Part shown: positions 4,991 through 43,774 of the stretch, piece by piece | Position numbering within the stretch: position 1 is the first letter of the stretch | Layout of the letters: every line of letters begins with the position of its first letter | Program-made: the position numbers and the translations under genes | From: an uncultured Candidatus Saccharibacteria bacterium | Lineage (GTDB): Bacteria > Patescibacteriota > Minisyncoccia > Phycocordibacterales > GWA1-40-21 | DNA length: 46,660 nt | Assembly (NCBI GenBank): GCA_964583845.1 | Contig: CAZOXG010000001.1 | Coordinates: 1-46,660, forward strand | Direction of reading: 5' to 3' | Notes under the pieces: model-generated | The model's input: the letters and a program-made list of their open reading frames with translations, nothing else | Database searches by the model: none | Told to the model about the DNA's origin: nothing

Positions 4991-5193
4991 TAGTTATTTT
5001 TTTTAAAATGACTATACATTCTAAATACAGATATCAAATTTTCTGTCATTCCCGCGCAGGCGGGAATCCAGGAATCGGTATAAGTCTTAATGCAAATAAA
5101 GACTAGATTCCCGTCTTCACGGGAATGACAGAGTGATATTTTGGTCTTTTTGTAATTCACACTACTCTAGTCATTTTTTTTAAAATGACTATA
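4991..5193. mobile_element. MITE-like palindromic element (inverted arms 5043-5131) bracketed by 26-bp direct repeats (4991-5016 and 5168-5193, 25/26 identical)
   Basis: Left arm: ctgtcattcccgCGCAGGcgggaatcCAG. Reverse complement of the right arm: ctgtcattcccgTGAAGAcgggaatcTAG. The flanking repeats are tagttattttttttaaaatgactata and tagtcattttttttaaaatgactata. Confidence 0.6.
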
Positions 5194-11277: not shown

Positions 11278-11292
11278 GACTTATTATAATTC

Positions 11293-11330
11293 CTGGATTA
11301 CTTTGTCAGACGACCTTCTCGCAATGACAG
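11293..11330. repeat. Solo copy of the dispersed palindromic repeat family
   Basis: ctggattactttgtcagacgaccttctcgcaatgacag. Confidence 0.55.
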
Positions 11331-11356
11331 AAAATAGAGAGAAAATTATTTAACGT

Positions 11357-11380
11357 AAAAACCGCCGAAAGGCGGTTTTT
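11357..11380. terminator. Bidirectional intrinsic terminator (aaaaaccgcc gaaa ggcggttttt)
   Basis: GC stem flanked by an A-run and a T-run, so it can work on either strand. Confidence 0.8.
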
Positions 11381-11640
11381 ACAAAGTGTTGTAGATTATC
11401 CTTAAAAGGAATCTACAACTATAACGCACGAAGTAAATTACGACTCGCAGGAGTTCAGCTTATTTGGTTGTTTGCTTAGAAACTAACCACTGAAGTCCGT
11501 TTCGAGAAAACCGGAAACCGGATACCCATGCTTGAAAAGAACTTCCCAGCTCCACACGGAGTGGGTAGTTCTCATTATAATGATTTAATAAAAAAAATCT
11601 ACTGAGTTATATATGGTGTTTTACTTCTAGTTTCGGGTAT
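11381..11640. other. 260-nt ORF-free, hairpin-rich orphan region; candidate ncRNA, strand unresolved
   Basis: It contains a 9-bp hairpin gttgtagat/atctacaac (11388-11419), ccgg-aaa-ccgg, and a composite hairpin aagaact.tccca.gctccac acgga gtgg..gtagttctc (about 11539-11575). On the minus strand a TATAAT (rc of attata at 11574-11579) precedes that hairpin, and the 11357-11380 terminator would close a transcript of about 215 nt. Confidence 0.3.
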
Positions 11641-11669
11641 TTGAATAAAAGTAATAAATATGTTATATT
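11641..11669 (+). promoter_or_regulatory. Promoter TTGAAT-17-(TGt)TATATT for island gene A
   Basis: ttgaat 11641-11646 and tatatt 11664-11669 with an upstream TG. The TTG of the -35 box is the spurious start codon used by the ORF track. Confidence 0.5.
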
Positions 11670-11757
11670 AAGGGTCGTTTCTGGTTCCTTGTTAATTAGT
11701 GTTAAGAGTGCTAAAAGCAACGGCGAAAACGCCAACAAAAAAGGAAGGGCAGTGACA

Positions 11758-12393
11758 ATGTGCATGTTCGAAGCAAAACAACTCTTTGATGAGATGAGGG
11801 ATCATATTCCTCGGATCACGGACCAAAAGTTGACCACAAAGTTGGGTCGCAAGTTGGAGTGTAACTTCTTTGGATACAGCTACCTCACAAGTAGTGCAAG
11901 TATCAAGACGTTATTACCAACATATAGCAATCTGACGATTGATCAAGCTGTATTGGTTGCGAAGCTTAGTCTGCCAGAAAACTGGAACACTACCAAGTGT
12001 CCTGGTTGGATCGGTAAATTTTACCGACTGGTGAGACATTCGCTCAAAGAGGAGTTGAGAAAGCTACCTAGCAAAGGAATTCCACTGACCCGTCAAATGG
12101 GGAGGTTGGAATTTATTCCTGCGTTGGGTACGCCACTCGATATCGTCTGGGGAGCAGACGGATTCTTTACTTTTGCCGGTGAAATAGTTGCGATCGACGT
12201 AACTGTTAATCCAGGAAAATTTTCTTCCTTGTGGAGTCCAGTGGTAATTTCCGCTGCGAGCTTTTCTCGGAGGACAAATCAAAAGTATCGGATTAATCTA
12301 GCCTGGACTTTGGCTAGAGAAGTGGCGAGAAGACTTATTGTAAGAATAATTGATAATCATATGAAAAAGGTAGTTATCAAAAATGTTGCTTAA
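11758..12393 (+). CDS. Island paralog A, hypothetical protein (211 aa from ATG 11758)
   Basis: An SD-like aggaaggg lies 8 nt upstream of ATG 11758 (MCMFEAKQLFDEMRDH..). It shares the motif series with B and C: FFG, P-x-(N/E)-W-N, G-x-x-[LF]-D-[IV]-x4-D-x-x-F, D-[VL]-T. Confidence 0.7.
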   Translation: MCMFEAKQLFDEMRDHIPRITDQKLTTKLGRKLECNFFGYSYLTSSASIKTLLPTYSNLTIDQAVLVAKLSLPENWNTTKCPGWIGKFYRLVRHSLKEELRKLPSKGIPLTRQMGRLEFIPALGTPLDIVWGADGFFTFAGEIVAIDVTVNPGKFSSLWSPVVISAASFSRRTNQKYRINLAWTLAREVARRLIVRIIDNHMKKVVIKNVA

Positions 12394-12513
12394 AAAAATA
12401 TAACACTAATTTAAAAAAAAGATTGGTTCTAACGCTAGAAGTAGGTTAGGACCGTAATAGGACATCGTTGTGAAAATACAACGGACTAATTGTTGAGTTC
12501 TCCACAATATAAA

Positions 12514-12546
12514 GCGCACCGCAAACCAGCGGTGCGTGTTTTTATA
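12514..12546 (+). terminator. Intrinsic terminator of paralog A (cgcaccgc aaacca gcggtgcg + T-run)
   Basis: The 23-nt core cgcaccgcaaaccagcggtgcgt (12515-12537) is identical to 13271-13293. Confidence 0.8.
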
Positions 12547-12683
12547 TAAGCAGGAAACCCAACGAAACTCTGTGATTTGAGGAATGCTGGGAGGATGTCA
12601 TTTGTCCTATTTACAATAGTACAAAATTATTGTAACCTGCATAAATAGTTCCTTGTTGTAAAAAAAAGAAAGAAGAGGTCAAA

Positions 12684-13232
12684 ATGATTTACCCGAGACC
12701 GGTTGACTATCCTATTGATTATTGCTTTGAAGGGGAAGAGTTCGAAAAAAACGGAAAAAGGCTTGAACAGAGTTTTTTCGGTTTTACTTTCAAAAATGAA
12801 AATCTGAACCGTCAATTTGTAATTGATTATTACCGGTCCAATATTGGTTTTGGTGAGGCTTTAGCCCAAGTCATGATCTATGGACCAAATTTTTTTCCCA
12901 ATTGGAATTCTTCTTTGCCAGACAATAACACTTATGCTAAATGGCTGTACTTTCAAGTTAGACAAACTTTGACCGACCTAAAGATCCCGGGGGACTTGAA
13001 GATATATCCTTGCCTAGGTTTCCCATTTGACGTGTGCCATGGAGTTGATGGTTTTTTTAAACTAGGGGATACAAAGTACTGCTTCTTTGATGTTACAGCT
13101 TTTAGACCGCCAGACGATCCATTAAAAAGTCAACCAAATGTGGTTGTTATTCACGAGGTGGAAATAGGGTACATGTACCGACCCCATGCCGAAGAACTGA
13201 TAAATAAGATTGTTGATCAACTGAAGGACTAG
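12684..13232 (+). CDS. Island paralog B, hypothetical protein (182 aa)
   Basis: SD agaagagg lies 5 nt upstream. Shared blocks with A are GKRLEQSFFGFTF / GRKLECNFFGYSY, FPNWN / PENWN, and GFPFDVCHGVDGFF..FFDVT / GTPLDIVWGADGFF..AIDVT. Confidence 0.75.
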   Translation: MIYPRPVDYPIDYCFEGEEFEKNGKRLEQSFFGFTFKNENLNRQFVIDYYRSNIGFGEALAQVMIYGPNFFPNWNSSLPDNNTYAKWLYFQVRQTLTDLKIPGDLKIYPCLGFPFDVCHGVDGFFKLGDTKYCFFDVTAFRPPDDPLKSQPNVVVIHEVEIGYMYRPHAEELINKIVDQLKD

Positions 13233-13269
13233 TTTTCTAGGAAGTCACCTTTTGTTTCTGTAACACAGA

Positions 13270-13301
13270 ACGCACCGCAAACCAGCGGTGCGTATTTTTT
13301 A
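13270..13301 (+). terminator. Intrinsic terminator of paralog B (same hairpin as after A)
   Basis: cgcaccgcaaaccagcggtgcgt followed by attttttatt. Confidence 0.8.
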
Positions 13302-13340
13302 TTATGTTTTATCTTTTGAGACTAAGAACGTGGTTACACT

Positions 13341-13368
13341 TTACAAGTATATTTATATATGGTATAAG
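13341..13368 (+). promoter_or_regulatory. Promoter TTACAA-16-(TGg)TATAAG for paralog C
   Basis: ttacaa 13341-13346 and extended -10 tggtataag 13360-13368. The SD gggagg lies 4 nt before ATG 13406. Confidence 0.5.
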
Positions 13369-13405
13369 AGTATCAGAAAAATAACAAAAGAACTCGGGAG
13401 GTCTT

Positions 13406-14005
13406 ATGATTTATTATACTGTTCCAAAGATTTATCATTATGGAGCTTTGTTTGAAAGGTGGTTTTTGGGCTTGCCCGATCTACATTTCATTTCGAAAGC
13501 TGAAATTGAAAAAGTAGTGGCGGAATTTAAAAATGCCAAGTCGGATTTTTTTATTCCTCTGCTAAAAGAAGTAATGTGTAATCAGCCAAAGGAATGGAAT
13601 CCCGCCAGCCCACACAACAGTCCGGCTAGTCGCCTTTTTAATTTGGTTAAAGAGAAATTGCTCAAATCGGGGAAAGTAAAAGAATCTGTGGTAAACAAAA
13701 GCCTCCGTTTTTACGTAGCGGTGGGTAGCCGTCTTGATATAATGTGTCAGACGGACTGCGCTTTTACACTTTATTGCGAAAGCGTGCATGTCACAGTCGA
13801 TCTCACGAGCAATCCCAACAAAAAGGAGAGCCACGCAGATATTATCCTGTCATTGACTGACCTTGAGTCTCTGACTGATGAGGGGAAGGCCGATGAAATA
13901 GCAAGACTTCTCATTGTTCGTTATAGATTGGAGGTAACCTACTCTCGAAAAAAACGGATTAGTTACCAGAAAAAAGGCATGAAGTTTCAATACTCTTTGC
14001 CGTGA
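13406..14005 (+). CDS. Island paralog C, hypothetical protein (199 aa), most diverged member
   Basis: PKEWN, GSRLDIMCQTDCAF...VTVDLT and EIARLLIVRY align with the corresponding blocks of A (EVARRLIVRI) and B. Confidence 0.7.
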   Translation: MIYYTVPKIYHYGALFERWFLGLPDLHFISKAEIEKVVAEFKNAKSDFFIPLLKEVMCNQPKEWNPASPHNSPASRLFNLVKEKLLKSGKVKESVVNKSLRFYVAVGSRLDIMCQTDCAFTLYCESVHVTVDLTSNPNKKESHADIILSLTDLESLTDEGKADEIARLLIVRYRLEVTYSRKKRISYQKKGMKFQYSLP

Positions 14006-14006
14006 G

Positions 14007-14048
14007 CGCCGTAGTTTGATCAAAAAATCAACGACGGCGTTTTTTTTA
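14007..14048 (+). terminator. Intrinsic terminator of paralog C
   Basis: cgccgt...acggcg imperfect long hairpin plus T9. Confidence 0.7.
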
Positions 14049-14148
14049 ATTATTAAGACTTTTGAAGTATTTTTTCTACTTGCTTTTATAGCAGATATGA
14101 TATAATTGTGCCGGTTCCGCCAATAACGTGCGGATTTTATTAAGTTAA

Positions 14149-15453
<1,305 letters not shown>

Positions 15454-22493: not shown

Positions 22494-25265
22494 ATGCATA
22501 TTAAAATTGTAAAATTTTGCGCAGTCGTCTTGTTAACGTTTTGGATTTCGGTGGGAATGGTTTCAGCCGGTAATATCGGTACTGGAACAACTTCCTCGTC
22601 AACATTGGCATATGGCCACAATAATACAATTGGCTATATAAATTTTGGTTTGTCGGGAACTTCTAGTGTGACGGTATCTAATAGTGAACTAACTGGTTAT
22701 GCTTGGGGACAAAATGTTGGCTGGATTAATTTACATTCAACTTCTTCAACCTGGGGAGTCATTAACGACGGAGCCGGTAATTTGTCGGGCTATGCTTGGG
22801 GAGAAAACTTGGGTTGGATTAATTTTAACGCTGCTACTAGTGGTCAAAGAGTAACTATTGATAGTAGTGGTGATTTTCATGGTTTTGCCTGGTCACAAGC
22901 TCGCGGTTGGATATCTTTCAATTGTCTGGACAGTGGCTCTTGTGGTACAAATTTTTATAAAGTAAATACTACCTGGACACCGGGGGTAGCTATTCTTGCC
23001 ACTTGTAGTCCGAGTGTTTCTTCGATACCAATGGGTAATAGTGTTACTTGGACAGCGAACGCTTCCGGTGGTAATGGAACCTTTACTTATGCTTGGACTG
23101 GCACGGATACTTTAAGCGGAACAACTGCTGCTGTTGGTAAAATATATTCTTCAGTTGGTTCCAAAACTGCAACTGTCACAGTATCTTCAGGTGCAACCTC
23201 AACCATTCAAAGTTGTGGTTCTATGAATGTTACCGGCAGTAGTGGTGGTACCGGTGGCATAACACCCCCACCCCCAGCGACTAGTTGTAATAATGGTGCA
23301 ATAAACTATTCAACTTGCACAATATGTGCTACTGGTCAGGGAATGTACAATGGTTCATGTACTACTTGTCCAACTGGAACTACCTTATCTGCGGGGACGT
23401 GTGTAGTGAGTACTTGTGAAAATAATGCAACAAATTATCCTACCTGTACAACTTGCGCAGCTGGAAAGGGGCTATTTAGTGGTTCTTGTGTTTCTTGTCC
23501 GGCCGACACCGCTTTATTAGATGGAATTTGTGTAGCCAATAGTTCTTGTGTGAATAACGCAACAAATTTTCCAGCCTGTACAACCTGTGTCTCCGGTAAG
23601 GGTATTTTTAATGGTACCTGTTCAACTTGCCCGAGTAATACTACTTTAAAAAACAACGTTTGTGTGATTACTGGTTGTTTGAATCAAGCCACGAATCCAC
23701 CTACTTGCGATAATAATGTTTGTACCAATGGTGCGACAAATTTTCCCACTTGTGACAACGTTTGTTTAAATAAAGCGACTAATTATCCTGACTGTAATAA
23801 TATTTGTTTGAACAGCGCTACTAATTTTCCAGCTTGTGATAATGAAGAAACTGTTTGTAAAAATAATGCTACGAATCCTCCAACCTGTGATAATGACGTG
23901 TGTACAAACGGGGCTTCAAACTTTCCAGCCTGTGACAATATTTGTACAAACGGTGCGACAAATTTTTCCACTTGTGACAATGTATGTTTGAATGGTGCTA
24001 CCAATTATCCAACTTGTAATAACGATGTTTGTAGTAATGGTGCTACCAATTACCCGGCTTGTGATAACAATATAACCCCTCCACCACCAAATAATCCACC
24101 AACAACCCCTCCAGATACTAGTATTTCAGACACCGGCAACGGTAATAATGTTATTTCTACCAATGATAATGGCACTGTTGAGGTAAAGATAGGTGCAATT
24201 TCAATTCCAATTGTTCCAGCTTTTATTGCCCAGTCAGCTTCTGAATCTTATCAGGCTATAAAAAATGTAACTCAACAGACAGCGGTGGCTACTAAAAAAG
24301 CCATTAATACTACATCTGGTTCTGTAACAACTAAAGCAATCACGACAACTGGCGTGGTGGCTGCAGGTGCAACCGCTACTCTTTCTCTTGTATTTAATCC
24401 GATGTCATTACCGGAAATATTCTTACTCCCATTACGTTTGTGGGGCTTGTTGATGAGTGCTCTCGGTTTGCGTAAGCGTAATCGTCCATGGGGAACGGTA
24501 TATGACAGTATTACTAAACAACCACTGGATCCAGCTTATGTAGTTCTTCAAGATGAATTTGGAAAAGAGATTACCACTTCAATTACTGACCTTGACGGAC
24601 GTTATGGTTTCTTTGCAAACAAAGGAAATTATAAAATCGTTGCTAATAAAACCAATTATATATTTCCATCCAAACGGTTAGTTGGAAAACAGTTCGATGA
24701 GCTCTATAAAGATTTATACTTTGGAGAATCATTAATGGTTTCAGAGGACGGTGGAGTTATTGCTAAAAATATTCCTTTAGATCCTGAAAAATTTGACTGG
24801 AACGAAGTTGCAAAGAAGAACATGGGTGTGATGCGTTTCTATTCCAAGTACGATTTGATTATTAAGAAACTTACTAATTGGTTGTTTGGTATCGGCGTAG
24901 TGATCTCAGTTCTTGCTTTCTGGTCCGCACCCTTCTTATATAACTCAATTATTTTAGGACTTTACCTCGTGATGTTGCTACTCAGAGTTTTTGGAGTTAG
25001 ACCGAAATATTTTGGTTGGATCTTGGATAAAAATACTGGTTTCCCGATGGCCTTTGCAATTGTTCGTCTTTACTCATTGGATATGGAAAGAGAAATGGCT
25101 AAGAAAGTTTGTGATAGTTCCGGTCGTTATTATGCTCTAGTGCCTCCAGGTCAGTATACTGTTACTATTGATCGTAAAAATCAGGATGAAACTTATACCA
25201 CAATTTATACCTCACCAGTTTTGATGGCGAAGAAGGGAGTTATAAATCAAGTTTTTAAGGTTTAA
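22494..25265 (+). CDS. 923-aa secreted/membrane-anchored mosaic surface protein
   Basis: Domain order: signal peptide MHIKIVKFCAVVLLTFWISVGMVSA; three G[YF]AW(G/S)xxxGWI(N/S)(L/F) repeats; a PKD-like Ig domain (..VTWTANASGGNGTFTYAWTG..); a Cys-rich repeat array; a Pro-rich linker; TM segments; and two carboxypeptidase-regulatory-like beta-sandwich domains (GTVYDSITKQPLDPAYVVL..DLDGRYGF; GWILDKNTGFPMAFAIVRL..DSSGRYYA). Confidence 0.8.
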   Translation: MHIKIVKFCAVVLLTFWISVGMVSAGNIGTGTTSSSTLAYGHNNTIGYINFGLSGTSSVTVSNSELTGYAWGQNVGWINLHSTSSTWGVINDGAGNLSGYAWGENLGWINFNAATSGQRVTIDSSGDFHGFAWSQARGWISFNCLDSGSCGTNFYKVNTTWTPGVAILATCSPSVSSIPMGNSVTWTANASGGNGTFTYAWTGTDTLSGTTAAVGKIYSSVGSKTATVTVSSGATSTIQSCGSMNVTGSSGGTGGITPPPPATSCNNGAINYSTCTICATGQGMYNGSCTTCPTGTTLSAGTCVVSTCENNATNYPTCTTCAAGKGLFSGSCVSCPADTALLDGICVANSSCVNNATNFPACTTCVSGKGIFNGTCSTCPSNTTLKNNVCVITGCLNQATNPPTCDNNVCTNGATNFPTCDNVCLNKATNYPDCNNICLNSATNFPACDNEETVCKNNATNPPTCDNDVCTNGASNFPACDNICTNGATNFSTCDNVCLNGATNYPTCNNDVCSNGATNYPACDNNITPPPPNNPPTTPPDTSISDTGNGNNVISTNDNGTVEVKIGAISIPIVPAFIAQSASESYQAIKNVTQQTAVATKKAINTTSGSVTTKAITTTGVVAAGATATLSLVFNPMSLPEIFLLPLRLWGLLMSALGLRKRNRPWGTVYDSITKQPLDPAYVVLQDEFGKEITTSITDLDGRYGFFANKGNYKIVANKTNYIFPSKRLVGKQFDELYKDLYFGESLMVSEDGGVIAKNIPLDPEKFDWNEVAKKNMGVMRFYSKYDLIIKKLTNWLFGIGVVISVLAFWSAPFLYNSIILGLYLVMLLLRVFGVRPKYFGWILDKNTGFPMAFAIVRLYSLDMEREMAKKVCDSSGRYYALVPPGQYTVTIDRKNQDETYTTIYTSPVLMAKKGVINQVFKV
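23284..24072 (+). repeat. In-frame coding tandem repeats: 3 long (~42 aa) plus 9 short (13-17 aa) Cys-rich units, C-x-N-x-A-[TS]-N-x-[PS]-x-C-[DN]-N
   Basis: Examples: CTNGATNFPTCDNV, CLNKATNYPDCNNI, CKNNATNPPTCDNDV, CSNGATNYPACDNN. The long units add C..C.SG.G.F.G.C..CP..T.L....C. Confidence 0.85.
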
Positions 25266-25274
25266 TTTTTAGAA

Positions 25275-25311
25275 AAAAGTCGGCAATTACAAAAAGTAAT
25301 TGCCGACTTTT
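25275..25311 (+). terminator. Intrinsic terminator (16-bp stem)
   Basis: aaaagtcggcaattac aaaaa gtaattgccgactttt. Confidence 0.85.
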
Positions 25312-25404
25312 AATTTGATTTGAGTATAGTATTTTTGCTTGTATTGTAATACGTTTTTTGATAAAATATACACAGTTAACGATTCATTTCGCGCACTATT
25401 TTAT

Positions 25405-28179
25405 ATGTCTCTATTTCAAAAAACAAAAGGGAATAAAGTCAGTCTATTTCTTGCTCTTTTTTCTCTGTTTTTCTTCATCGGTAGTGCGTATTTTGTCTCT
25501 CCTATCTTTGCTTTTGTTCCTCCTGGTACTTTAGATCCTGGCTGTCCTCCAACTCAACCCGATTGTACAGTTAGCTTCTATAGTGACACTAACGCTCGAG
25601 CGGCTATTTCAGTTCAAAATATTGACGGTATTACTTATTCCTCCTCAACAGGAATTTTTACTCTAACACCAGGTTATATTATTCCAACTTCTACTTCTAC
25701 TGACACCTGGAATAATCTTCTCTCTGCTAGTTCTACTTGGAACGCTGCGGCTTCTTGGGGTAATCACGCGACCTTCGGTTACTTAACAGCTTCCACTGCC
25801 GCCACCACTTATTTATCTCTCTCCGCTTCTTCTTCATTTCTTTCTACTTCTACCGCTGCTCAAACTTACTTAACTCAAGACAATGCTTCCTCTACTTATT
25901 TATCCAAAGATTCAGCTTCTTCAACTTATCTTACCCAGACCAACGCCAATTCAATCTATCTTTCTCAAGTTAACGCTAATCTAAATTATCTATCAACCTC
26001 TTCCGCTGCTGCCACATATTTAAATCTTTCAGCTACATCTTCTTTTGCGAGATTGAGTGGCGCTATTTTTACCGGTTCAATCTACGCAACTAACTTTTCT
26101 GGAAGCGCGACTGGAACGAATACTGGTGATGAATCATCTTCGACTATTCGCACTAAACTTGGTGTGGCTACTGCTTACAATGACGGTTACTTATCAGCTA
26201 GTGATTGGAATATTTTTAATAGTAAAATATCTTCACCTTGGCTCACTATAACTAATTATTCCAGTTTATCGTCTGTGCCAGCCACTGGTGGAACAGCCTT
26301 TTCTGATTCAAACTGGCCAAGTAATGTTCCATCCCAAGCTTTTGATGGTGTACTTGATGGATATAATATCGGTTGGATTAATTTAGGTGGAAATACCGGT
26401 ATTCTCGGATATCAATTTGCTTTCGGTAAGATTCTTACTAGATACACTATTTATCCTTGGCATGGTGCCCAAAATGAATCTGGAAGAAGACCCAAAAACT
26501 GGACTTTTGAGGGTTCAAATAACGGCATAAACTACACAGTTTTAGATACTCAGGTAAACCAAACTTCTTGGACAACTAGTGTTGGTAATATTTATACCTT
26601 TTCAAATTCGAATAGCTATATATATTATCGTTTAAATATTTCAGATAATACTGGAGACGCAAATACAGCTATTGCAGAAATACAGTTTTCTGGATCTGGT
26701 TCTCCCGATACTTATTCTGCTGCAGCTGGTAATGTGGGTGTTGGAACAACAAATCCTCTGGCTAAATTAGACGTAAATGGCAATGTTAAATTAGGAGATG
26801 GAACAGATGCTGTTATAAAATTTAATTCCACAGTAGGTGCTGCCGGAGCTGGTGGTAATTCTTCAACTTTAGTTTTACAACCATCGGCATCAAACAGTAC
26901 AGGCCAAATCAATTTAAGACCATCTGGCACAAGCACTGTTCTACCAGCTTTTGTACTTAATGATTCATCCACAGGTGCGATTGGTTCTCATAGTTTTTTG
27001 ATGGGTGTCGGGGCTAGTTCATTCAACAACTATACTACCGCTTATTTTGCATCGACTATATCTGGAAATGCAAATGCGGACTCATACCCAATTGGTTTTG
27101 TTGTATCAAATGCCTCAGCCGGAAGATTTACAGCGATGACTGTAGCCAATAGTGGTAAAGTTGGTATCGGCACGAGTACTCCAGTCTCCACTTTGTCAGT
27201 TATTGGATCCGGTTATTTTTCTGGTGATTTATTTATCGGCACAACTACTTCTAGTTCTACTGTAGGTACTGTTAGTAACTTATACGTTAATGGTACAGGT
27301 ATGTCTTCTGGTGGTTGGACCAATGGTTCCTCTCGTTCAATCAAAGAGAATTTTACTCAATTAGACCGTTCAGATATCCTAAACAAAATCTCTCAATTAG
27401 AACTAACTCAGTGGAACTATATTGGTCAGTCCACTTCCACAGTTCACATAGGTCCAATTGCGGAAGATTTTTACTCTAAATTCGGTCTCGGTGGTTCAGA
27501 TAAATCAGTTTCCACTATCGATCCCGCCGGTGTGGCTCTCGTTGGTATTCAAGCTCTTAGCTCTGGTTTAAGTAATCTATTTGGCACAACCACCCTTTCT
27601 TCTTTGATTGCGACTTCTACTATCAATCCTGATAATTTTGCGATCACCGATGTCTTTGCTGAACTAGTGCAAAAGGCTATAGATAAAATCTTTGAAGTCG
27701 GTAAGACCTTAGCTGGTTTGGTTACAAACAAATTAACTGTCGGTTCTTCTACTCAACCAGCGGGTATTACTTTGTATGATGAAGACACCAAAGCTCCTTA
27801 TTGTTTGAAAATGAAGAGTGGTATAATGACTTCAGTACCTGGTGATTGTGCCAATCAGCCAACTGTTCAGAACATAAATCCAATTGCTCCAGTGATAGAA
27901 ACTCCGATTAATTCTGCTGCTTCAACTTCAGAAACAGTTTCTACTACCGGCCCTGCTACTGAAACCTCAACCTCAACAAATGATGTTGTATCACCAACTG
28001 GAACAATCTCGACTCCAATAGTAGAAACCCATGTTGTGGTAGATCCAACTCCTGCAGAACCTGTAGTGGTTCCTGATCCAGTGGTAACCCCAGTTGTAAT
28101 TGAACCAGTAAGTGTTCCAGAAATTACAGTACCTGATAATACATCGGGCTCAGAGCCAGTATTAGCTCCAACGGAATAA
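25405..28179 (+). CDS. 924-aa secreted tail-fibre-like protein with a discoidin-like domain and a C-terminal peptidase-S74-type intramolecular chaperone domain
   Basis: ATG 25405 (MSLFQKTKGNKVSLFLALFSLFFFIGSAYF.. signal anchor). Then, in order: PGTLDPGCPPTQPDC; about nine 10-11-aa x-YL-x repeats (25768-26060); an F5/8-type-C-like block AFDG..GW......Y.......I..Y.IYPW....ESGRRPKNWTFEGSNNG.NYT.LD (26278-26700); NVGVGTTNPLAKLDVNG fibre repeats; SSRSIKENF..LD..DILNKISQLELTQWNY.....VHIGPIAEDF....G (27310-27600); and a P/V/T-rich tail. Confidence 0.8.
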   Translation: MSLFQKTKGNKVSLFLALFSLFFFIGSAYFVSPIFAFVPPGTLDPGCPPTQPDCTVSFYSDTNARAAISVQNIDGITYSSSTGIFTLTPGYIIPTSTSTDTWNNLLSASSTWNAAASWGNHATFGYLTASTAATTYLSLSASSSFLSTSTAAQTYLTQDNASSTYLSKDSASSTYLTQTNANSIYLSQVNANLNYLSTSSAAATYLNLSATSSFARLSGAIFTGSIYATNFSGSATGTNTGDESSSTIRTKLGVATAYNDGYLSASDWNIFNSKISSPWLTITNYSSLSSVPATGGTAFSDSNWPSNVPSQAFDGVLDGYNIGWINLGGNTGILGYQFAFGKILTRYTIYPWHGAQNESGRRPKNWTFEGSNNGINYTVLDTQVNQTSWTTSVGNIYTFSNSNSYIYYRLNISDNTGDANTAIAEIQFSGSGSPDTYSAAAGNVGVGTTNPLAKLDVNGNVKLGDGTDAVIKFNSTVGAAGAGGNSSTLVLQPSASNSTGQINLRPSGTSTVLPAFVLNDSSTGAIGSHSFLMGVGASSFNNYTTAYFASTISGNANADSYPIGFVVSNASAGRFTAMTVANSGKVGIGTSTPVSTLSVIGSGYFSGDLFIGTTTSSSTVGTVSNLYVNGTGMSSGGWTNGSSRSIKENFTQLDRSDILNKISQLELTQWNYIGQSTSTVHIGPIAEDFYSKFGLGGSDKSVSTIDPAGVALVGIQALSSGLSNLFGTTTLSSLIATSTINPDNFAITDVFAELVQKAIDKIFEVGKTLAGLVTNKLTVGSSTQPAGITLYDEDTKAPYCLKMKSGIMTSVPGDCANQPTVQNINPIAPVIETPINSAASTSETVSTTGPATETSTSTNDVVSPTGTISTPIVETHVVVDPTPAEPVVVPDPVVTPVVIEPVSVPEITVPDNTSGSEPVLAPTE

Positions 28180-36222: not shown

Positions 36223-36676
36223 GGAACATCTTTGTGGATGTTCCAGCGGTCTTGAACGCCGGAGCCAATTTTTGTTAGCAGACAAAAATGCGAGGTTGAA
36301 ATTTGGGTTGGGCCCCAAATGAAAGACCTTTTAAGATAAATTGAGCCATGCGAAATTATATCTAAAAGGTGTACTGTTCCTGTAAGGAAGTGCCCAGAGT
36401 AAAATTTTTGACGAAAAATTTTAAGTCGCGGGAAAGGTCCCGAGAGCTGGCTTTCTGGCTTGAAAGACGGAATCAAAGATTTTCAGTAGAAAATCTTGTG
36501 AGTCGGGGTCGAGACTTTTTCTGAACGACGGTGAAGAAAAAAGTCGTGACCAAGTCCAAGATTGCGATAATGATAGAAATACATTTACTCTACAAACTTA
36601 CGATAGAATCATAAACTTGATAAAGTAGGGAACTTTCTTGAAATTCCCAGGAAACACCGATTTGTCTGAATCGGAA
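36223..36676. other. ~450-nt ORF-free, densely hairpinned region; candidate large ncRNA or long structured 3' UTR
   Basis: Consecutive stems: ctggaacatc/gatgttccag; atttttgt/acaaaaat; atttggg/cccaaat; ccttttaagata/tatctaaaagg; aaaattttt/aaaaatttt; cggga/tcccg; aagatttt/aaaatctt; gactttttct/agaaaaaagtc; gggaa/ttccc; ccgatt/aatcgg. Confidence 0.35.
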
Positions 36677-43569: not shown

Positions 43570-43621
43570 TTAATATGTTGAAGAGTAGGTCGATTACTTT
43601 GGATTACGAAACCCTTTTTTT

Positions 43622-43774
43622 CTGTCATCCTCGCGAACGCGGGGATCCAGGATAAATTAGTCTTGATTCTTAATACAAAACAGTCTGGATTGCTTCGCCA
43701 GGCCACCGCAAGAGTACTCACATTTTCTACCACGGATTACCGTGAAGAAAATTAGATCGCTCGCAAAGACAGTC
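43622..43774. repeat. Composite ~150-bp copy of the dispersed palindromic repeat family
   Basis: ctgtcatcctcgcgaacgcggggatccagga ... ctggattgcttcgcc ... gatcgctcgcaaagacagtc. The left arm is nearly identical in pattern to 5043-5072. The spurious minus-strand ORF across it reads ..WIPAFARMTEKKG... Confidence 0.6.

Follow-up and report, generated by a model that had tools for sequence, protein, structure and literature searches.

Three divergent, putatively nuclease-like paralogs in exchangeable cassettes of a Candidatus Saccharibacteria genome

The 46,660-nucleotide stretch of an uncultured Candidatus Saccharibacteria bacterium analysed here (contig CAZOXG010000001.1, positions 1 to 46,660; hereafter the window) carries, between the terminator of a DUF1653 gene and the promoter of the enolase gene eno, an island of three tandem genes, A, B and C, which encode distantly related proteins of an unnamed family. 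As read from the sequence, the island is built of cassettes, each comprising a promoter, a leader with a Shine-Dalgarno (SD) sequence, a gene and a terminator, and comparison with related strains indicates that whole cassettes are gained, lost or replaced by recombination at the terminators. The favoured account, with a probability of about 0.5, is that these genes are divergent nuclease-like paralogs residing in exchangeable autonomous cassettes and held under strong constraint. Two roles are left standing for them: a nucleic-acid processing or salvage enzyme specific to the Candidate Phyla Radiation (CPR), with lineage-specific extra copies, or a defensive or selfish nuclease cassette.

All three genes lie on the + strand: A (11758-12393) encodes 211 amino acids from the ATG at 11758, B (12684-13232) encodes 182 and C (13406-14005) encodes 199. 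These are the reading frames described in an earlier note on this DNA, and its proposal that their ordered motifs reflect a real and deep paralogy is borne out. A and B align by BLASTP at E=2e-10 (28% identity over 132 amino acids), A and C at E=2e-8 (26% over 163 amino acids), and B and C at E=5e-3, the three pairs spanning 22-28% identity, while a hidden Markov model (HMM) of the family matches A, B and C at 1e-27 to 5e-44. No further match to this model was found among the open reading frames (ORFs) of at least 40 amino acids in the window. Most of the motifs were found as the note gave them: GRKLE..FFGY in A and GKRLE..FFGF in B; the G-x-x-[LF]-D motif, reading GTPLDIVWGADGFF in A, GFPFDVCHGVDGFF in B and GSRLDIMCQTDCAF in C; a third aspartate in IDVT, FDVT and VDLT, located 13, 14 and 15 residues downstream in A, B and C, respectively; and a C-terminal helix motif EVARRLIVR in A and EIARLLIVR in C. 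A P-x-(N/E)-W-N motif assigned to all three proteins needs correction: W-N is invariant, and the complete motif is seen in A as PENWN and in C as PKEWN, whereas in B it is shifted by one residue (FPNWN).

Of the residues conserved across the family, A carries G30xxxE34, D128, D134, D147 and K154. B keeps the glutamate and the three aspartates, its lysine being placed beyond a five-residue insertion (FRPPDDPLK), and C keeps the glutamate, the three aspartates and the lysine, with CQ where the family usually has HG. Since the E, D, D, D, K set is kept in all three proteins, no copy looks dead. No hydrophobic membrane segment was detected in A, B or C, the maximum 19-residue Kyte-Doolittle mean being 0.85-1.18, in agreement with the note. 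The orthologue of A is P0004 (65% identity), identical copies of B occur on nine contigs, and the nearest relatives of C are P0005 (49%) and P0006 (39%). Most likely, A, B and C are functional proteins of the cytoplasm that belong to one unnamed family and diverged long ago.

The gene calls of JGI and NCBI give A 250 amino acids, starting from a TTG at 11641. In a comparison with the related locus L015, the part of the gene beyond ATG 11758 shows 11 substitutions, of which ten are synonymous and one is conservative (V to I), while the TTG extension shows three substitutions that alter two residues (V to P and R to W). Because the substitution pattern differs on either side of the ATG, the start of A is placed at 11758 (211 amino acids), and the 250-residue database calls are therefore 39 residues too long.

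Each paralog is followed by its own intrinsic terminator, as the note had claimed. The terminator of A consists of a hairpin at 12514-12537 followed by a T-run, the element extending to 12543 (-20.7 kcal/mol, z -6.2), that of B of a hairpin at 13270-13293 followed by a T-run, the element extending to 13299 (-21.4 kcal/mol, z -6.4), and that of C of a hairpin at 14004-14042 followed by T8, the element extending to 14048 (-16.6 kcal/mol, z -3.7); all are on the + strand. The A and B terminators share an identical 22-nt hairpin core, CGCACCGCAAACCAGCGGTGCG, which is present nowhere else in the window. The segment 12506-12543 and the B terminator, one on either side of the B cassette, are the two copies of a 38-nt direct repeat (87% identity, spacing 756 nt). 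The C terminator differs in sequence from the A/B hairpin and is the final element of the variable segment.

A recognisable SD sequence precedes each gene: AAGGAAGGG at 11740-11748 for A (core AAGGA), AGAAGAGGT for B (core GAGGT), and GGGAGGT for C (core GGAGGT). The note had contrasted this layout with that of the neighbouring housekeeping genes, and the contrast proved sharper than stated: among the 32 other window genes checked, 30 have no SD-like match, two have a 4-nt match, and none has a match of 5 nt or more. The same tendency appears elsewhere. With one identical scanning procedure applied to both gene sets, an SD of at least 5 nt was found near the candidate start in 20 of 36 family genes from other genomes versus 45 of 276 neighbouring genes (Fisher p = 9e-7). 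A TATAAT-like box ends 4-12 nt before the start codon in 12 of the 35 window genes, versus five and two at control offsets; the + strand gene starts in this survey include 15826, 17437, 19847, 25339, 30665, 31405, 37052 and 40364. Such boxes, together with the scarcity of SD sequences, mean that many mRNAs here may be leaderless, and the sequence suggests that leaderless mRNAs are common in this genome.

Candidate promoters, recognised by consensus match, precede all three genes on the + strand. For A, a sigma-70-type promoter at 11641-11669 comprises TTGAAT, a 17-nt spacer and TGnTATATT (-10 at 11664-11669), giving a leader of about 80 nt. The candidate -10 box of B is TACAAT at 12612-12617 (leader about 60 nt) and that of C is TATATT at 13348-13353 (leader about 45 nt). 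At the right boundary of the island lies the eno promoter, also on the + strand, with a TGnTATAAT -10 region at 14096-14106 (-10 at 14101-14106), which is kept in relatives that carry other cassettes.

The composition of the island differs between close relatives. In L015, L016 and L009 the flanks are 91-95% identical to the window and the segment 11353-12547, comprising a non-coding orphan region, A and the A terminator, is 98% identical, but a single 211-amino-acid paralog, D (P0008), stands in place of B and C. D is 34% identical to C and has its own SD sequence, AAGGAGGTG. In junction alignments the left breakpoint falls a few bases past the A terminator, where its T-run ends, and the right one immediately before the eno promoter; from about 14071 onward, the window is again homologous to L015 and L017. 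A further lineage, of about 75% nucleotide identity, carries at the same eno-proximal position a gene F (P0153), whose product is 73% identical to D, and has another first gene, E. According to the gene content of the relatives, the slot therefore holds A+B+C, A+D or E+F. Each gene having its own SD and terminator, and B and C being replaced by D, the genes behave as autonomous units with a sporadic distribution.

The note had taken the paralogs to be fast-evolving and had proposed an estimate of the ratio of nonsynonymous to synonymous divergence (dN/dS). This estimate points to strong constraint instead: between the window and L015, dN/dS is 0.027 for A, compared with 0.019 for secA, 0.035 for eno and 0.030 for obg. 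The amino-acid identity of D and F between L015 and L017 (73%) is likewise close to that of SecA (76%) and Obg (78%), with MurB at 54% and MYG1 at 45%. From these comparisons, the low identity between copies is best read as the product of ancient subfamilies and cassette replacement, not of rapid point evolution; the genes appear to be under strong purifying selection, and the variation lies in which cassettes the locus contains. The synonymous divergence (dS) of A, 0.075, is the lowest of 12 genes, the other 11 neighbours having 0.13-0.42, which hints that the A module itself was recently exchanged.

The family is not confined to the island. Its description in the note as uncharacterised stands. 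A, B and C have no match in Pfam, NCBIfam or PHROGs (best E>=0.05, the best matches being mutually unrelated) and none in PADLOC-DB v2 at E<=1; searches of PDB sequences with profiles of 3 and 113 sequences gave chance matches only, and a Pfam scan of 113 members found nothing recurrent at E<=0.1. NCBI records name the members 'hypothetical protein'. A word-indexed homology search recovered only five relatives, namely A, B, C, P0004 and P0005, and a metagenome scan with protein A returned only previously known contigs. The family became visible through an exhaustive HMMER sweep of 1.84 billion cluster representatives, rather than through the word-indexed search. This sweep, the kind of iterative search that the note had proposed for defining the family, yielded 549 representatives of 50%-identity clusters at E<=1e-3, 62 of them at E<=1e-10, and most of the listed members are 130-220 amino acids long.

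To place members in their genomes, a degenerate DNA pattern for LDxxHG[VIM]DxFF was searched in one genome per GTDB species, giving 120 loci, of which 42 were verified by the family HMM at a cut-off of 1e-10. About two thirds of the pattern matches were chance occurrences in non-CPR genomes, and none of these reached 1e-10. Of the verified loci, 35 bear CPR names (Saccharibacteria, Paceibacterota, Zambryskiibacteriota, Falkowbacteria, Harrisonbacteria, Yanofskybacteria, Colwellbacteria, Microgenomatus, Parcubacteria and Patescibacteria), four are labelled 'bacterium' only and three, by an unconfirmed label, 'uncultured Gammaproteobacteria'. The family is thus found almost only in genomes labelled Patescibacteria or CPR and is apparently CPR-restricted. 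The three contigs labelled Gammaproteobacteria with verified members are L030, L082 and L137; these labels may be wrong, or the family may extend beyond the CPR. A 145-amino-acid member (L146, 1894-2331) is located on a 248-kb IMG/VR contig, IMGVR_UViG_3300040801_004532, where it is oriented divergently from two genes that we read, from motifs alone, as a putative ATP-dependent DNA ligase gene and a primase/polymerase-like gene; the contig comes either from a jumbo phage or from a cell, in which case it is misclassified. With P0045 as the only query, tblastn against 50,697 phage genomes gave no match.

Each of the 42 verified loci has one copy per 8-kb stretch, usually amid housekeeping genes. 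In five of them (L025, L043, L114, L035 and L089) the family gene is followed by genes for a thioredoxin-like protein, a DsbB-like protein and MYG1. SecA is encoded directly upstream of the family gene in L025, L043 and L114 and was not seen there in L035 and L089; a position adjoining secA is kept in several Paceibacteria-type loci. The window shares this SecA...MYG1 frame, with extra genes inserted. In a Komeilibacteria genome the family gene follows rplA and precedes nucleotide-metabolism genes (AAA_18 kinase, CYTH, DHFR, MazG, ThyX and Tmk). At the syntenic loci next to SecA the family proteins are 38-49% identical, versus 47-88% for their neighbours (SecA 77-88%, thioredoxin-like protein 56-78%, MYG1 60-66%), a difference that may stem from old subfamilies having replaced one another and not from rapid point evolution.

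The family gene is immediately followed, in 18 of about 40 loci, by a same-strand gene for a CxxC...CxxC protein of 73-109 amino acids, which in many cases overlaps the stop codon of the family gene; examples are L102 1871-2110, L073 1077-1313, L109 4140-4358, L123 3521-3754 and L055 537-818. This zinc-ribbon-like protein, which belongs to no Pfam family, is probably a functional partner of the family. It is absent from the window, and no fusion with it was found among the top 150 family members. L030, one of the contigs labelled Gammaproteobacteria, also carries it.

The consensus of 113 members reads `G..FE..FFG ... QP..WNP..P.T ... L.LY.A.G[ST].LD..HG[VI]D.FF ... VT.DLT.N..K...KAD ... A..IA..L`, and the motif G[ST]xLDxxHG[VI]DxFF ... 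VTxDLTxNxxK recurs across members. D128 and D134 (A numbering) are invariant in the 113 members, and G30, E34, D147 and K154 are kept in at least 90%. An AlphaFold2 model of A built from the 113-sequence alignment has a mean predicted local distance difference test score (pLDDT) of 87.5 and a predicted template modelling score (pTM) of 0.83. It predicts, with high confidence, an N-terminal helical bundle leading into a four-stranded beta-sheet and then a long C-terminal helix. In the model a helix at residues 23-38 contains E34 and is followed by helices at 46-56, 61-70, 83-101 and 111-116. Strand 1 (118-121) leads to a short helix (126-131) with D128, strand 2 (135-139) is directly preceded by D134, strand 3 (142-149) bears D147 and T149, and the loop after it bears K154; strand 4 (162-165) and the C-terminal helix (175-210) complete the fold. 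The aspartates thus lie at or on successive strands of the predicted sheet, as the note had anticipated.

The PD-(D/E)XK nuclease signature places D ... (D/E)-x-K on strands 2 and 3 and, in many cases, a glutamate on helix 1, and the near-invariant E, D, D, D and K residues of the family sit, in the model, roughly where this fold keeps its active site. In the alignment of the Holliday junction resolvase Hjc, G5xxxE9 is kept on helix 1, D33 on strand 2 and E46-x-K48 on strand 3. The G-to-E spacing of 4 and the D-to-acid spacing of 13 are common to Hjc and the family, in which the distance from D134 to D147 ranges from 13 to 15. Foldseek lists obtained with two models against two libraries repeatedly contain PD-(D/E)XK proteins, all at non-significant scores. 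The PDB matches include Hjc (2eo0, 1gef, 4tkd and 1hh1), RecU (2fco), MGME1, AdnA, HincII, McrC and I-Ssp6803I, and those in BFVD include six VRR-NUC and two PD-(D/E)XK proteins, besides several whose names mention an endonuclease, a nuclease or a restriction enzyme. With roughly even odds, a derived PD-(D/E)XK-like metal-dependent nuclease is the best available mechanism on the basis of the model, as distinct from an established membership of that fold.

A number of results weigh against the favoured account. Foldseek with the deep model returned nothing significant (best E 2.7 in PDB and 0.4 in BFVD, TM-score <=0.39), nor did a PDB search with an earlier shallow model (pLDDT 72); the check by structure prediction and Foldseek that the note had proposed therefore gave a confident model with no significant neighbour. 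Profile-profile comparison by hhalign, which was run against Hjc alone, gave a probability of 0.2%, the same as for a reversed-sequence control, and three sub-alignments covering the sheet, with and without the flanking helices, gave no signal; the Hjc profile is shallow, being made of Thermococcales and three PDB sequences, with the P. furiosus sequence 100% identical to 1gef_A. For want of a profile signal with Hjc, 'nuclease' remains an inference. PD-(D/E)XK Pfam models are not recurrent among the 113 members, the sole match being FokI_cleav_dom in one member at E 0.014. In the model the canonical lysine position is Thr149, with the conserved K154 five residues further on; strands 3 and 4 are not joined by the helix of the alpha-beta-beta-beta-alpha-beta core; and the first helix is followed by about 75 residues of further helices before the sheet begins. 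PD-(D/E)XK variants without the lysine do exist, such as BamHI with E-x-E and BglII with E-x-Q. For the cassettes, a generic promoter scan was not enriched (14 found versus 13.7 expected), so that the promoters which the note had assigned to each paralog stand as plausible -10-like boxes identified by consensus, and the low dS of A rests on 10 substitutions. The metal centre of nuclease or phosphoesterase type that the note had envisaged has fared similarly: nucleases are the sole recurrent structural resemblance, at scores short of significance.

If the favoured account holds, E34 of the GxxxE motif, D128, D134, D147 and K154 would make up a site that binds a divalent metal and cleaves phosphodiester bonds by hydrolysis. 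We would then be dealing with a small nuclease whose derived PD-(D/E)XK-like core, resembling Hjc and VRR-NUC, has about 75 helical residues inserted between the first helix and the sheet and a displaced canonical lysine, D-x-T...K standing for (D/E)-x-K. Because the residues are kept in all three paralogs, all three should be active, probably on different substrates. A broader version, rather improbable as a whole, would see a hitherto overlooked, CPR-wide class of derived PD-(D/E)XK endonucleases in autonomous, exchangeable cassettes, with terminator hairpins serving as recombination joints, acting as a strain-variable defence arsenal or as selfish homing-type elements, controlled in many lineages by the zinc-ribbon-like partner, and set in genomes whose other mRNAs mostly lack SD sequences and may be leaderless.

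The proteins might instead belong to a conflict module of defensive, toxic or selfish nucleases, whether restriction-like, partner-checked toxins or homing-endonuclease-like, that would move as self-sufficient cassettes into the gaps separating conserved genes and whose tandem array would be an arsenal of specificities. This is possible but rather unlikely. Whole cassettes are replaced between relatives with about 94% nucleotide identity in the flanks, and the number and type of copies at the slot differ in three lineages; expression signals are private to each copy and include an SD leader, which most genes of this genome lack; and the synonymous divergence of the A module lies below that of its flanks, a pattern expected from gene conversion near a homing site. 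Restriction enzymes and the PD-(D/E)XK homing endonuclease I-Ssp6803I are among the weak Foldseek matches, one member lies on the 248-kb IMG/VR contig, and the downstream CxxC...CxxC gene, often overlapping, resembles the second gene of a toxin/antidote pair. The window, however, has no such partner, and three unguarded 'toxins' are hard to explain. Nor was there any match to a PADLOC, PHROG or Pfam model of defence or toxins, any phage hit in the tblastn search with P0045, or any methyltransferase, mobility or secretion gene noticed among the Pfam-annotated neighbours of the island. The strong purifying selection, the ordinary rates of the orthologues, the usual single copy per 8-kb locus amid housekeeping genes and the kept secA-adjacent position also argue against conflict. 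The conflict or host-interaction locus of the note accordingly keeps its basis in whole-gene replacement between close relatives and loses it in the ordinary rates and the lack of a known defence or toxin model, and it is retained here as a possibility. An array of immunity proteins was set aside in view of the enzyme-like invariant residues and the absence of a toxin gene.

A further proposal is a vertically inherited, CPR-specific enzyme of nucleic acids or nucleotides, for instance in RNA processing or in nucleotide salvage from imported nucleic acid, with extra sub-functionalised copies in this lineage and with the cassette differences due to ordinary gain, loss and displacement by a distant homologue. 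The family spans CPR classes (Paceibacterota, Saccharibacteria, Microgenomatus, Falkowbacteria and Komeilibacteria), its neighbours include the SecA-X-Trx-DsbB-MYG1 arrangement, in which X is the family gene, as well as rplA and nucleotide-metabolism genes, A is as constrained as a housekeeping gene, D and F diverge like SecA and Obg, and all three window copies keep the conserved residues. Yet at the SecA-adjacent positions the family is far less conserved than SecA, the thioredoxin-like protein and MYG1, its subfamily content differs between close relatives, which is unusual for an essential enzyme with a single function, and SD leaders and separate terminators set it apart from the surrounding housekeeping genes, so that a housekeeping role of this kind is unlikely. 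Equally doubtful is that the proteins are no nucleases at all and that their conserved acidic, histidine and lysine residues hold a metal or a small molecule for a different reaction, for instance nucleotidyl transfer or that of a phosphatase, or else have a structural or regulatory role in a new fold. Nothing searched gave a significant structural or profile match, and strands 3 and 4 are joined without the helix that a PD-(D/E)XK protein should have there. The Pol-beta nucleotidyltransferase signature is hG[GS]-x(9-13)-D-h-[DE]-h with a third carboxylate on a neighbouring strand. The order of strand 1, G[ST], short helix and strand 2 with its aspartate, followed by a later acidic strand, loosely recalls this signature: the spacing from G124-[ST]125 to D134 fits, and D147 is a possible third carboxylate. 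Where the D-x-D pair should have its second carboxylate, however, stands a conserved phenylalanine (VDxFF), and a nucleotidyltransferase was rejected as a candidate. Neither nucleotidyltransferases nor phosphatases appear in the Foldseek lists, where nucleases recur.

The genes that frame the island are identified by precomputed Pfam matches, which bear out the placing of the block between the accessory pair GNAT and DUF1653 and the enolase gene. The gene order in the window is SecA, DUF2007, GNAT, DUF1653, A, B, C, eno, iPGM, AI-2E, a 138-amino-acid ORF and MYG1. The GNAT/DUF1653 unit ends in a terminator at 11355-11382 on the + strand (hairpin -19.9 kcal/mol, z -6.3, then a T-run), which forms the left breakpoint of the A module. 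It is followed by a structured non-coding orphan region at 11385-11640 (+ strand; 256 nt), with a minimum free energy of -75.2 kcal/mol (z -4.9 relative to shuffled sequences). This region shows five substitutions relative to L015 and travels with gene A. No credible Rfam match was found for it or for the intergenic regions, where only sub-threshold noise appeared. It could be a long, regulatory leader or an undescribed small RNA.

A short palindromic repeat, in degenerate form, occupies 11284-11335 (no strand assigned) and marks the island's left edge; its ends, TCCTGGATT...AATGACAGAAAA, correspond to the element at 5039-5073 and 43618-43652 read as its reverse complement. A repeat element and a structured orphan region at this edge had been noted before, and both are found. 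The repeat, TTTTCTGTCATTCCCGCGCAGGCGGGAATCCAGGA, is dispersed in intergenic sequence at 5039-5073, 5103-5132 and 43618-43652. In L015 the gap between DUF1653 and A holds extra copies (L015 6528-6723), which match 5038-5123 and 36294-36405 of the window. It may be an element of the miniature inverted-repeat transposable element (MITE) or repetitive extragenic palindromic (REP) type that is involved in rearrangements. On the other side of the island, the eno leader is about 50 nt long (14107-14160), has no SD sequence and shows by eye a small hairpin and then a U-run, CCGCCAATAACGTGCGGATTTT, which may be an attenuator.

In a metagenome-assembled genome at NCBI with the locus-tag prefix WCJ59, A, B and C correspond to WCJ59_01805, WCJ59_01810 and WCJ59_01685. 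Because the tags jump between B and C, the island seems to be split there in that assembly, and a split at this junction would fit strain heterogeneity. Elsewhere in the window, two very large ORFs (923 and 946 amino acids) at 22494-28179 contain many 42-nt and 93-nt tandem coding repeats and are seemingly rich in cysteine and asparagine; they may encode repetitive surface proteins.

The CPR, or Patescibacteria, make up a large share of bacterial diversity and have many lineage-specific families without assigned function. Here, three 'hypothetical proteins' become members of a defined family with a motif signature, a fold model, a recurrent partner and a candidate active site (E34, D128, D134, D147 and K154). 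If the nuclease reading is true, the family would be a strongly derived branch of PD-(D/E)XK and a candidate CPR-specific nucleic-acid enzyme. The locus also illustrates a form of variation in a streamlined genome, in which transcription-unit cassettes appear to be exchanged at terminator and promoter boundaries while the genes themselves are tightly constrained.

Among known systems, the closest likeness is to PD-(D/E)XK proteins (Hjc PF01870, RecU and VRR-NUC), the only class that recurs in the weak Foldseek lists. The family shares with them a small soluble protein, GxxxE on an early helix and a G[ST] turn after strand 1, and with Hjc in particular an aspartate that starts strand 2 and an acidic residue 13-15 positions later on strand 3 (D33 and E46 in Hjc). 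It is unlike them in lacking a significant sequence, profile or structure match, in having threonine for the catalytic lysine, an additional invariant Asp128 and about 75 residues of inserted helices, and in having no helix between strands 3 and 4. The downstream CxxC...CxxC gene of 73-109 amino acids, present in 18 of about 40 loci with stop and start often overlapping, recalls type II toxin-antitoxin and restriction modules, although neither gene matches PADLOC or Pfam models of toxins, antitoxins or restriction enzymes, the partner is absent from the window, and the annotated neighbours showed no noticeable methyltransferase.

Another comparison is with phage morons and free-standing homing endonuclease genes (T4 seg and mob, for example), which are single genes with a promoter and a terminator that lie between conserved genes. 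The cassettes of the window are likewise autonomous units between conserved genes, present, absent or different in close relatives, and the adjacent sequence appears recently exchanged; the lower dS of the A module (0.075 versus 0.13-0.42) would be compatible with mobility and with site-specific cleavage of alleles lacking the cassette. They differ in residing on a bacterial chromosome rather than a phage, in their broad and often syntenic conservation across the CPR, and in strong purifying selection. By topic only, the family can also be compared with the CPR-enriched protein families of unknown function reportedly described by Meheust et al. (2019). Like these, it occurs almost exclusively under CPR labels and has no functional annotation; unlike these, it is defined here by its motifs, modelled with a confident fold, linked to a partner gene and described at the level of the locus.

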